IMG/VR virus record: IMGVR_UViG_2698536408_000006
Strand: one strand, 5' to 3'
Length of the DNA stretch: 10,593 nt
Source of the DNA: a virus
Lineage: Duplodnaviria > Heunggongvirae > Uroviricota > Caudoviricetes
Within the stretch, counting starts at the first letter, position 1. The number at the start of each line of letters is the position of its first letter. The position numbers were made by a program. Positions 3,001 to 6,000 of the stretch are shown piece by piece.

Positions 3001-6000
3001 GTGCGCGTGAATGAATGGTTCAGCGCGTATGCGATGGCGGGCGTGGCTTACAGCCGTGTGTCGACCTTCTCCGGGGATTATCTCCGCGTAACTGACAACA
3101 AGGGGAAAACGCACGATGTGCTGACCGGAAGTGATGGCGGTCGCCACAGCAACACGTCTCTGGCGTGGGGGGCTGGCGTGCAGTTTAACCCGACCGAATC
3201 CGTGGCCATTGACCTTGCTTATGAAGGTTCCGGCAGTGGTGACTGGCGCACTGACGGTTTCATCGTGGGTGTCGGTTATAAGTTCTGATTAGCCAGGTAA
3301 CACAGTGTTATGACTGCCCGCTGGTTCAGGCGGGCTTTTTGTGGGGTGAATATGGCAGTAAAGATTTCAGGTGTACTGAAAGATGGGGCGGGTAAACCTG
3401 TCGTAAATTGTGCGATTGAACTGCGGGCCAGAAGAACCAGTCCGACCGTTGTGGCACACGTTGTTGCCACTTGCGTGACGGACAATAACGGTGCTTATGT
3501 GATTGAGGCTGAGCCGGGGTATTACGAGGTTGCGCTTCACTGTAACGGCTGGCAGCCAACCCGTGTCGGGGATATTGATGTGGCACCGACTGATGCACCG
3601 GGGACACTGAACGCGTTTCTGAATGCACCAAAGGATGGTGATTTACGTCCGGAGGTGATGAAGTGTCAGCGCCAGTGATATAAGACGGTAATTCGCCATT
3701 TGGATTGTCCGCTCCACCCAACATGTTGTTTCCTTAAGGTTCTCACACCAGAAAGGACATCAACATGCTGAGCAGAGAGGACTTTTACATGATAAAGCAA
3801 ATGCGCCAGCAGGGCGCGTACATCGTCGATATTGCGACTCAGATTGGTTGCTCTGAACGGACGGTCAGACGCTACCTCAAATACCCTGAACCGCCAGCCA
3901 GAAAGACNGTCTTTCTGGCTGGCGGTTCAGGGTATTTGAGGTAGCGTCTGACCGTAACAGCGGATGACGGCAGTGAGCGGCTGGTCAGCACGGCCCGGAC
4001 GACGGAAACCACTTACCGCTTCACACAACTGGCGCTGGGGAACTACAGGCTGACAGTCCGGGCAGTAAATGCGTGGGGGCAGCAGGGCGATCCGGCGTCG
4101 GTATCGTTCCGGATTGCCGCACCGGCAGCGCTGTCGCGGATTGAGCTGACGCCGGGCTATTTTCAGATAACCGCCACGCCGCATCTTGCGGTTTATGATC
4201 CGACGGTACAGTTTGAGTTCTGGTTCTCGGAAAAGCGGATTGCGGATATCAGGCAGGTTGAAACCACAGCACGCTATCTTGGCACGGCGCTGTACTGGAT
4301 AGCCGCCAGTATCAATATCAAACCGGGCCATGATTATTACTTTTATATCCGCAGTGTGAACACCGTTGGCAAATCGGCATTCGTGGAGGCTGTTGGTCAG
4401 CCGAGTGATGATGCATCCGGTTATCTGGATTTTTTCAAAGGCGAGATAGGGAAAACCCATCTGGCTCAGGAGCTGTGGACGCAGATTGATAACGGTCAGC
4501 TTGCGCCTGACCTGGCTGAAATCAGGACGTCCATTACGGATGTCAGCAATGAAATCACGCAGACCGTCAATAAGAAACTGGAAGACCAGAGTGCGGCAAT
4601 TCAGCAGATACAGAAGGTTCAGGTTGATACAAATAATAACCTGAACAGCATGTGGGCTGTGAAGCTGCAGCAGATGCAGGACGGACGCCTTTATATCGCG
4701 GGTATTGGTGCCGGTATTGAGAACACCCCTGACGGCATGCAGAGTCAGGTGCTGCTGGCGGCGGACAGGATTGCGATGGTTAATCCTGCGAATGGCAACA
4801 CAAAACCGATGTTTGTTGGTCAGGGCGATCAGATATTCATGAACGACGTGTTCCTGAAACGCCTGACGGCCCCCACCATTACCAGCGGTGGAAATCCATC
4901 GGCATTTTCCCTGACTCCGGACGGAAAGCTGACCGCTAAAAATGCGGATATCAGTGGCAGTGTGAATGCGAACGCCGGGACGCTCAACAATGTCACGGTA
5001 AATGAAAACTGTACGATTAAGGGCATGCTGGAGGCGACTCAGGTCAGAGGTGACTTCGTTAAAGCTGTATCCAAATCATTTCCGAAACAGGCTGGTACGT
5101 GGGGTAACACGGAAACACCAAACGGGACGGTTACAGTCACCATAAGCGATGATCATAACTTTGACCGCCAGATTATTATTCCGCCCATTATTTTTAACGG
5201 TATAGCGTATGACGATCCGGGGAGCGGAAATAACCCAGGAGGCACGCGATACACGGGTTATGGTTTTGAAGTTCGCAAAAACGGCGTATTAATCGCATCC
5301 AGAGAAACTAAAGGTGCCATTCCCGGTAGTTACAGTGCAGTTATTGATATGCCTAGTGGTGGTGGTAGCGTCACTCTGGAGTTTAAGATTTTCCAGAAAG
5401 GCAATCAGGGGGCAGGCAATATCACCGACTGTACGGTGATTGTGACCAAAAAAGCGGCTTCCGGCATCAGTATTCGTTGAAATATTTATAACCCCAATAA
5501 ATGGCGTCAGGAATGACGCCTTTTTTATTGCAGAAAAGCGAGAGGTAATTATGCGTAAAGTTTGTGCAGCCATTTTGTCCGCAGCCATTTGCCTGGCCGT
5601 ATCCGGTGCGCCTGCATGGGCGTCTGAACATCAGTCCACGCTGAGCGCGGGGTATCTTCATGCCCGGACCAACGTTCCCGGCAGTGATGATCTGAACGGG
5701 ATTAACGTGAAATACCGTTATGAGTTTACGGATACGCTGGGGCTGGTGACGTCATTCAGCTATGCAGGAGACAAGAATCGCCAGCTGACCCGTTACAGCG
5801 ATACCCGCTGGCATGAAGATTCCGTGCGTAACCGCTGGTTCAGCGTGATGGCGGGGCCGTCTGTGCGCGTGAATGAATGGTTCAGCGCGTATGCGATGGC
5901 GGGTGTGGCTTACAGCCGTGTGTCGACTTTTTCCGGGGATTATATCCGCGTAACTGACAATAAGGGGAAAACGCACGATGTGCTGACCGGAAGTGATGAC

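Follow-up and report, generated by a model that had tools for sequence, protein, structure and literature searches.

False joins made by greedy scaffolding of short reads are the closest described relatives of the structure considered here. Page et al. (2016; PMC5320598) worked with 299 Shigella sonnei assemblies, and in their pipeline a Velvet assembly is followed by SSPACE scaffolding with links down to 5 read pairs and then by 120 rounds of GapFiller; the authors themselves call SSPACE and GapFiller "greedy" and consider "false joins" possible. For GapFiller, an overlap of at least 10 nt suffices to close a gap, the default overlap being 29 nt (PMC3446322). A second class of comparable structures is that of long palindromes and fold-back inverted duplications, which are SbcCD-sensitive in E. 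coli and are also known as amplification chimeras. Two further pieces of background matter. Where the estimated gap is negative, SSPACE writes a single n, and direct repeats of 11 bp are a classical substrate of RecA-independent deletions.

The window, that is, the whole 10,593-nt stretch analysed, is the entire record CXDH01000136.1, a scaffold of an S. sonnei short-read WGS draft (assembly GCA_001259155.1). CXDH01 probably originates from the Velvet/SSPACE/GapFiller pipeline, as its accession series, the name "IS21 ORF1" and the published figure of 299 assemblies suggest. At position 3908 the scaffold contains a single n, which lies in the centre of a perfect palindrome. We propose that this palindrome is very probably a scaffolding artefact of the draft and is not present in the genome, and that the two J-lom-stf copies on its sides are not neighbours.

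The scaffold consists of at least three pieces linked by n, and all features named here lie on its plus strand. The first piece (1-1328) is an internal part of J of the type found in one prophage, prophage A, and is 99.0% identical to positions 6847-8174 of a closed prophage-A locus (L001). At all 14 mismatches it carries the allele of a second prophage, prophage B, and these 14 bases fall into four patches. A scaffold gap of 68 n (1329-1396) follows, the flanks of which overlap: the 87 nt before it and the 87 nt after it agree at 84 of 87 positions and both map to 8088-8174 of the same locus. This second gap is added here as a correction to the feature account of the first-pass annotation. 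The next piece, 1397-3907, is 99.8% identical to prophage A (L001 8088-10598). It holds the 3´ part of J (1397-2621, frame-3 stop at 2619), a lom ORF of 199 aa (2689-3288; the corresponding gene has Ail_Lom Pfam matches in L001-L010), the N-terminus of the side-tail-fibre gene stf cut by an IS (3310-3678, a fusion ORF of 122 aa) and the left end of an IS21-family element (3664-3907, IS positions 1-244, istA start codon at 3765), where the contig ends. On the other side of the n, positions 3945-10593 are 100.000% identical to prophage B of CP023645.1 (L013 4731-11379). They comprise the 3´ part of J (3945-5480), annotated only as a 374-aa ORF from GTG 4356; lom of 160 aa (5551-6033); stf of 1029 aa (6126-9215), the exact product of which occurs in S. 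sonnei Ss046 (CP000038.1); and tfa of 193 aa (9215-9796). The index contains the exact tfa product in 3535 blocks, of which 64 include contigs above 1 Mb, and all ten loci read lie on contigs of ~4.7-5.0 Mb. The scaffold ends within a repeat, namely the first 48 nt of IS1 (10546-10593), and a sister scaffold, L024, has the same 48-nt end.

The arms of the palindrome, 3861-3907 and 3909-3955, are exact reverse complements of 47 nt each, with the n at 3908 as the only spacer. When both arms were compared, complementarity was 100%, just as the first-pass annotation had described. Symmetry is lost immediately beyond them (g at 3860 against t, the complement of 3956). The next-best inverted repeat in the window reaches only 30 nt at 73%, and the 47-nt palindrome is thus far above chance. 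Its left arm corresponds to IS positions 198-244. The base at the centre of symmetry is undetermined, a placeholder of a scaffold gap where closed genomes have IS base C, and determined sequence is therefore not continuous through the centre: the pattern reads AGAAAGAC, one base, then GTCTTTCT. The right arm has two components. Positions 3909-3944 (36 nt) are the reverse complement of IS 209-244, for which no closed genome has a counterpart at this place. Positions 3945-3955 are the 11-mer CGTCTGACCGT, which is at once reverse-complemented IS 208-198 and a part of prophage-B J at gene position 1963. The IS/J junction reads GGTAGCGTCTGACCGTAACAGC, and the matching sequence of intact prophage-B J is CTGCTCCGTCTGACCGTAACAGC. 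It had been claimed that the IS arm and J share a microhomology of 8 bp; the sharing holds, while against prophage-B J the true stretch is 11 nt. The shorter figure arose because the first J copy in the window (CGCCTGACCGT at 949-959) shares only 8.

Neither side of the n continues in finished genomes as it does in the window. In all ten prophage-A loci read from long contigs (nine of these have ~4.8 Mb, and the tenth is a 322-kb draft contig), AGAAAGAC continues with CCGCCACAAAATG (CCGCCAC...). J of prophage B has ...CTGCTC upstream of the shared 11-mer; for example, in L011 CGTCTGACCGT is preceded by ...GAGCTTCCTGCTC. Both the IS and prophage-B J run uninterrupted across their supposed breakpoints in closed genomes, and of the 11 B loci, 10 have an intact J of 1165 aa. 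The two flanks are also far from being adjacent. In JBEAAA010000004.1, the prophage-A locus occupies 2,558,551-2,578,919 and the prophage-B locus 1,875,748-1,896,329, and the spacing is the same in JBEAAD010000003.1; on these two chromosome-length contigs of ~4.8 Mb, the A and B points are ~689 kb (~0.69 Mb) apart, with B before A. The A-B joint is absent from the closed genomes examined. The warning of the first-pass annotation that the tandem J-lom-stf arrangement should not be trusted is thus supported, as the two sides of the join map ~0.69 Mb apart in closed chromosomes.

The junction 34-mer had no match in IMG/VR or GTDB representatives, the palindrome-centre pattern had none in GTDB representatives or JGI metagenomes, and a search of 5,426 complete E. 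coli genomes and 72,556 plasmids yielded no record spanning the join. The structure thus gave no match in four collections, the palindrome is lacking in the sister scaffolds, and no independent assembly or isolate containing it was found. The ORF that spans the n is deposited as a 59-aa protein, CSQ62685.1 "IS21 ORF1 [Shigella sonnei]", and cluster look-up places it in one contig only. One apparent spanner of the query, the E. coli genome H99, turned out to carry an ordinary insertion of ISEc62 in J, which has no relation to the join.

The insertion of the IS into stf is a different matter. Its left tip lies at 3664 and begins with the left terminal sequence TGTCAGCGCCAGTG..., and the IS bases of the window are identical to 1-244 of a 2130-nt element, full copies of which (istA of 390 aa and istB of 265 aa) are found in a sister scaffold (L027) and in the S. 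sonnei plasmid CP104427.1. The 122-aa fusion product of stf´ and the IS is indexed in 543 blocks, and each of the ten loci read has it, nine of these loci being on contigs of ~4.8 Mb. IS insertion in stf of this sit-adjacent prophage is real, ordinary and widespread in S. sonnei. The earlier statement that we are not dealing with a normal IS insertion therefore applies to the join at the n and fails for the IS in stf. Within the window, only IS 1-244 is present, not both terminal inverted repeats with istA and istB, and istA looks cut because the contig ends at IS base 244. In closed genomes, the prophage-A copy runs on to base 428 and is then interrupted by an IS3-family element; its right end is disrupted by IS3-family elements there.

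Why should a contig end exactly at base 244? The same stop, followed by n, occurs in seven further drafts of S. sonnei and affects four different copies of the IS. Five of the contigs concerned (L038-L042) represent three other IS insertion sites, and all show IS 1-244 followed by n. In the N-free contigs L045-L047, AGAAAGAC is directly joined to TGGCCACAAATGTCAACG..., which is the beginning of a nested IS21-family element, and the umuDC flank of L047 is common to the S. sonnei drafts L039 and L042. There are two continuations at IS 244/245, AGAAAGACCCGCCAC and AGAAAGACTGGCCAC, and this position is a real branch point, because in some IS copies bases 244 and 245 are separated by the insertion of another IS21-family element. 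In the isolate of the window, the source of the branch would be a putative copy interrupted at 244/245, of the kind known from other contigs. The symmetry of the palindrome then follows from the fact that both arms stop at IS base 244, and a fold-back chimeric read is unnecessary. Two other accounts of the common stop were considered and rejected. Firstly, the arm length could have been set by the k-mer of the assembler; lengths of contig-end IS1 are in conflict, being 48 nt in the window and L024 and 31 nt in L025 and L027, and L025 stops at IS 244 despite its 31-nt end, which makes the stop independent of k. Secondly, the IS copies could differ at base 245; three copies on plasmid CP104427.1 and the prophage-A copy all have C, and neither that plasmid nor the closed loci contained an alternative continuation at IS 245.

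The first-pass annotation had left the choice between a contig-end join and a fold-back chimeric read. The join stands (a scaffolded draft, an n gap and distant flanks), whereas the chimera is not needed. Fold-back chimeric fragments, formed during library preparation, joined at short homology and assembled into the end of a contig, would indeed have the observed shape, which goes forward along one strand and then back on its complement. At the centre, however, the record has n, which means that no read-derived base was called there, and the left arm ends where seven other, palindrome-free drafts routinely stop. Only 47 nt later, the template would also have to be switched once more, into J. 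Moreover, random chimeras are single molecules and would fail the coverage thresholds of the published pipeline (PMC5320598). We therefore regard this origin as very unlikely.

The join has counterparts in the same assembly series, with varying partners and coordinates (L024, L025, L027 and L038-L042), and the n in the window stands exactly at the joint. In L024, "...agaaagac n" is followed by prophage-B J from what is position 4288 of the window; in L025, "nnnn" precedes J from position 4141; and in L027, the full IS is followed by "nnn" and J from position 4000. Among 17 gaps checked, the only palindromic one is that of the window itself. Could these links instead reflect a genuine 95-bp palindromic junction, fusing stf´ and IS of prophage A to the 3´ part of prophage-B J, for instance as the new joint that a duplication of ~0.69 Mb or an excised circle would contain? 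In the reference B lies upstream of A, and an A end followed by a B start then has the topology of a tandem-duplication joint; A is linked to B in four isolates. The four isolates, however, join at four J coordinates (3945, 4000, 4141 and 4288), always across n and with no bridging sequence at any of the joins. Their gaps are 1-4 n long, yet if the junction of the window were the real one, the stretch of J lacking there would measure 93 to 381 nt. In addition, the same J interval is present twice within the same scaffolds, and no closed genome contains the joint. A genuine junction of this kind is highly improbable, and it is just as hard to credit a large duplication or rearrangement joint in which a folded-back IS21-family fragment forms a 95-bp palindrome seeded by the 11-bp microhomology. 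The recurring A-to-B link may be due to J paralogy, which does not fully explain it.

A possible course of events leading to the palindrome is as follows. Starting with J contigs of the two prophages, which are paralogous, the scaffolder would have chained them one after another, and a single n would have been left where it put the distance at zero or below. The right-hand piece may have entered the IS on the opposite strand through the 11 bases shared with J, and have halted at base 244. Two ends at base 244 would then meet head to head in a perfect palindrome with an arm of 244-198+1 = 47 nt.

The step by which the right-hand piece acquired its IS bases is less certain than the join. As a guarded best guess, we take greedy gap-filling to have written the 36 IS-derived bases at 3909-3944, which would then not be present in the DNA of the isolate. 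According to a less probable but serious alternative, the scaffold join creates the palindrome, and the right junction (3909-3955) is nevertheless real DNA of the isolate, with an inverted IS upstream of prophage-B J. Such a junction might have arisen when the 11-bp repeat CGTCTGACCGT served as the site of illegitimate recombination, with loss of the sequence between IS 198 and J 3944, and the event could be an IS-adjacent deletion or inversion. The J sequence does end exactly at the shared 11-mer, and a right arm stopping at IS 244 is what the branch point would lead one to expect. Tools that rely on k-mers or overlaps longer than 11 nt need bridging reads to write the junction; with the 29-nt default of GapFiller, the 11 bases in common would thus not suffice to extend J into the IS unless reads truly bridge the two, which favours a real junction for 3909-3955. 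Three scenarios for the 36 nt within GapFiller (extension, false closure and edge trimming) were tried, and none fits the defaults without an extra assumption. The junction is seen, however, in one record only, while prophage-B J is intact in nearly all B loci and runs intact across the 3945 point in the drafts L024, L025, L027, L028 and L030. Chance 11-mers common to J and the IS are not rare either (3 forward and 5 reverse-complement blocks). Finally, L024 has at 5211-5220 a false join that is N-free and non-collinear and in which the two sides have exactly 10 bases in common, from which it follows that chimeras at the 10-nt threshold of the gap filler do occur in this series.

If the palindrome is a product of scaffolding, as we propose, its biological weight is small, for it represents no new element or mechanism. 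Its practical value is that of a warning about CXDH01000136.1 and its sister assemblies. On this reading, three things are products of scaffolding, namely the tandem J-lom-stf layout, the "truncated" J of 374 aa and the protein CSQ62685.1 of 59 aa, and none of them should be cited in support of a prophage duplication, a rearrangement mediated by the IS or novel variants of proteins. The pattern "IS bases 1-244 then n", found at four IS copies in the S. sonnei drafts read, provides a simple flag for such joins.

Taken together, the locus resembles several known systems to different degrees. Like IS21-family elements, the window has the left terminal sequence, the istA start and the HTH N-terminus; the 2130-nt element is annotated "IS21-like element IS21 family", and its first ~430 nt are ~94% identical to a Yersinia pestis copy. 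Unlike a complete element of the family, the window has only IS 1-244 followed by the contig stop, and the apparent fragment is not a biological truncation. As in a tandem duplication of the lambdoid J-lom-stf tail-tip module, two J-lom-stf series lie on the same strand of the record, but the copies are only 88-97% identical and come from two prophages ~0.69 Mb apart, in contrast to the near-identical, adjacent copies of a recent duplication. With long palindromes and fold-back inverted duplications the structure shares its 47-nt arms and 1-nt spacer; it differs from them in that each arm is the end of a contig built independently of the other, with no continuous sequence over the centre and without any independent record. 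The greatest likeness is to the greedy SSPACE/GapFiller false joins of the Velvet pipeline (PMC5320598). Common to both are the n at the joint and the distant flanks with paralogous sequence, and further the second gap with overlapping flanks and the same class of error in sister assemblies, where one join has exactly the 10-nt closure overlap of GapFiller (PMC3446322). What sets this join apart from the usual ones is its perfect palindrome, in which the same IS is entered on opposite strands and both ends lie at one branch point.

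The window is byte-for-byte identical to the entire record CXDH01000136.1 of assembly GCA_001259155.1, and the palindrome reported in the first-pass annotation is borne out by a repeat search: positions 3861-3907 and 3909-3955 are exact reverse complements of 47 nt each, with a single n at 3908 between them. Symmetry is lost immediately outside the arms (3860 is g, the complement of 3956 is t). Chance is excluded as its origin, because the runner-up inverted repeat in the window reaches only 30 nt at 73%. The ORF reading through the n was deposited as CSQ62685.1, 'IS21 ORF1 [Shigella sonnei]' (59 aa), and among ~15 billion proteins it was found on this single contig only. 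There is a second gap, absent from the first-pass annotation, of 68 n at 1329-1396, whose flanks (1242-1328 and 1397-1483) overlap by 87 nt, 84 of them identical; the three mismatches, located where the right-hand contig begins, are alleles of the right-hand prophage (B, as opposed to the left-hand prophage A). Merging these contigs, rather than leaving a gap between them, would have been correct. The overlapping flanks therefore identify the window as a scaffold with unmerged contig ends.

The left series, belonging to prophage A, comprises J (1-2621, interrupted by the 68-n gap), lom (2689-3288) and stf' (3310-3678). A 2130-nt IS21-family element, whose left tip lies at 3664, interrupts stf'; its istA has the start codon at 3765, and the left palindrome arm (3861-3907) equals IS positions 198-244, numbered from that tip. 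The first 36 nt after the n (3909-3944) repeat IS 209-244 in reverse complement, and the next 11 nt, CGTCTGACCGT (3945-3955), are compatible with the reversed IS as well as with J. They are followed by the 3' part of a second J, annotated as J' of 374 aa, then by lom, stf (1029 aa) and tfa of prophage B, and the scaffold ends with the first 48 nt of IS1 (10546-10593). The two J-lom-stf series, 88-97% identical when the repeats of the window are compared, are different prophages and no fresh duplication. The J contig at 1-1328 is of prophage-A type, but 14 of its positions, grouped in four patches (257-273, 528-570, 686-694 and 855-861), have the prophage-B allele. Simple path-switching in an assembly graph at k ~49 fails to explain them, because four of the eight A/B switches fall within stretches of identity of less than 48 nt; they may stem from a third J paralogue, from polishing or from real gene conversion involving both prophages. 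The N-terminal third of stf (6650-7750) contains many degenerate direct repeats of 29-46 nt, rich in Ala, Ser and Thr codons (families D6-D8 and D11).

The stf'::IS fusion product (122 aa) is indexed in 543 blocks and adjoins sitABCD in all ten loci that we read, nine of them on contigs of ~4.8 Mb. Window 1397-3907 is 99.8% identical to this sitABCD-adjacent prophage-A locus, and in all ten loci the IS past ...AGAAAGAC goes on as CCGCCACAAAATG. The insertion in stf is an ordinary, widespread S. sonnei feature, and the IS "fragment" of the window marks where a contig stops and is no truncation of biological origin. As for prophage B, all 6,649 nt of window 3945-10593 match a second prophage of CP023645.1 at 100.000% identity, and identity from 3945 to strain Ss046 (CP000038.1) is 100% up to 9338. 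Its J is intact (1165 aa) in 10 of 11 loci, and in finished genomes the bases upstream of CGTCTGACCGT read ...GAGCTTCCTGCTC. In JBEAAA010000004.1 the B locus (1,875,748-1,896,329) and the A locus (2,558,551-2,578,919) lie on the same strand, with the same spacing in JBEAAD010000003.1; the two "joined" points are ~689 kb apart in chromosome-length contigs, B before A. No record spanning the join was found among 5,426 complete E. coli genomes and 72,556 plasmids. The junction 34-mer had no match in IMG/VR or GTDB representatives, nor had the palindrome-centre pattern in GTDB representatives or JGI metagenomes. With an n at the centre, flanks so distant and no spanning record, the earlier suspicion of a contig-join artefact proves right. 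Ss046 lacks 63 nt of tfa (near 13213 of the locus read) that are found at window 9339-9401 and in CP023645.1, and tfa is not called there; either the in-frame deletion is real or the old reference is in error. In E. coli VTB97379v (NZ_CP178682.1) a complete ISEc62, also of the IS21 family, splits a lambdoid-prophage J in two, which is an ordinary insertion with no relation to the join of the window.

Other drafts of the same accession series likewise place the J of prophage B after prophage A. In CXBD01000046.1 the sequence is "...agaaagac n cgctgtactgg", and J is entered at a point corresponding to window 4288; in CXBT01000039.1 it is "...agaaagac nnnn ttgagctg", J starting at 4141; and CXCQ01000151.1 carries the full IS to its right tip, then "nnn" and J from 4000. 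The partner coordinate is thus different each time and the joint is always n; an inherited real breakpoint would give one coordinate, without n. None of these three joins contains a palindrome, and among 17 gaps examined n 3908 is alone in having an arm of more than 2 nt. These scaffolds also hold the same J interval twice, and several of their n-joins jump backwards between J paralogues. Paralogue chaining of the same class is seen in CXFU01000079.1, where three copies of the stf 5' region are chained at 1-5435 across gaps of 20, 11 and 1 N before the scaffold reaches sitABCD on the flank of prophage A. The 48-nt IS1 end of the window stops at the same base in CXBD01000046.1 and after 31 nt in CXBT01000039.1 and CXCQ01000151.1, which suggests that k-mer sizes or read lengths varied among the sister assemblies.

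The position at which the IS stops is not peculiar to this locus. A query with the first 48 IstA residues returned many short proteins identical there and divergent after. Five of them, named "IS21 ORF1 [Shigella sonnei]", come from five more S. sonnei drafts and represent three other copies of this IS (one in the gltX/nadA-yfeR interval, one on a plasmid after umuDC and one in a further prophage); all five drafts read flank, IS 1-244, a single n and unrelated DNA. Together with CXBD01000046.1 and CXBT01000039.1, each of these contigs ends at IS base 244, then n, so the halt is routine in this series irrespective of the IS copy entered. Three N-free contigs from other projects continue from base 244 with TGGCCACAAATGTCAACG..., one end of another IS21-family element that is nested there in opposite orientation, exactly at 244/245. 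The end in question, TGGCCACAAATG, is similar to the target that it displaces, CCGCCACAAAATG, and the dinI-umuDC flank of one of these contigs is 98.8% identical to two of the S. sonnei drafts. The nested element makes 244/245 a genuine branch point, at which a graph assembler breaks and a majority-rule extender halts; contigs reading 5' to 3' along this IS therefore end at 244. Contigs AIHJ01000024.1 and JOQW01000106.1, whose more distant IS21-family element visibly differs from that of the window, end at the homologue of IS base ~243, and a cluster of 47-aa partial IstA proteins has 105 members, which hints that assemblies of IS21 relatives are broken at the homologous site as well.

A probable course of events is as follows. 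The left contig enters the IS at its tip and ends at 244; the right contig, on the opposite strand, enters at base 198 and also ends at 244, presumably owing to the branch point; the isolate itself would then carry an interrupted IS copy. Two such ends placed head to head give a perfect palindrome, each arm of which measures 244-198+1 = 47 nt. The scaffolder probably placed paralogous J contigs in succession, and the 36 nt at 3909-3944 were probably written in gap filling. SSPACE and GapFiller both descend in code from SSAKE, an ancestor-type extender. Assemblies such as this one were likely made with Velvet, then SSPACE (16 rounds, with as few as five read pairs) and then GapFiller (120 rounds; PMC5320598), a pipeline whose published sample list includes 299 S. 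sonnei and whose authors term SSPACE and GapFiller greedy and liable to false joins (PMC5320598). GapFiller first removes 10 nt at either edge of a gap, then lengthens both edges with 30-mers and by default closes the gap once the extensions overlap by at least 10 nt (PMC3446322); SSAKE uses the first eleven bases to index reads as well as their reverse complements (PMC7109930). J and the IS have several 11-mers in common by chance, of which only CGTCTGACCGT falls within IS 1-244. In CXBD01000046.1 an N-free join at 5211-5220 connects prophage-A-type J to a point of prophage-B J ~780 nt upstream through exactly 10 shared bases (CCGGGGGCAG), with no match beyond on either side; chimeras at the GapFiller threshold therefore do occur in this series. 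Under a requirement of 29-nt overlap, real bridging reads would be needed for the IS/J junction, and a true microhomology junction in this isolate therefore stays a serious, if less likely, alternative to gap filling. In that case, too, the palindrome would be artefactual, and so would the side-by-side position of A and B.

Taken together, the palindrome is best regarded as no real feature, and two annotations of CXDH01000136.1, J' of 374 aa and "IS21 ORF1" of 59 aa, are artefacts, with similar ones in sister assemblies too. The structure differs from a biological palindrome in that no called sequence passes through its centre and in that it is absent from every independent record searched. 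It equally differs from a tandem J-lom-stf duplication, an arrangement which the first-pass annotation was right to distrust: in finished genomes the two copies do not lie side by side.
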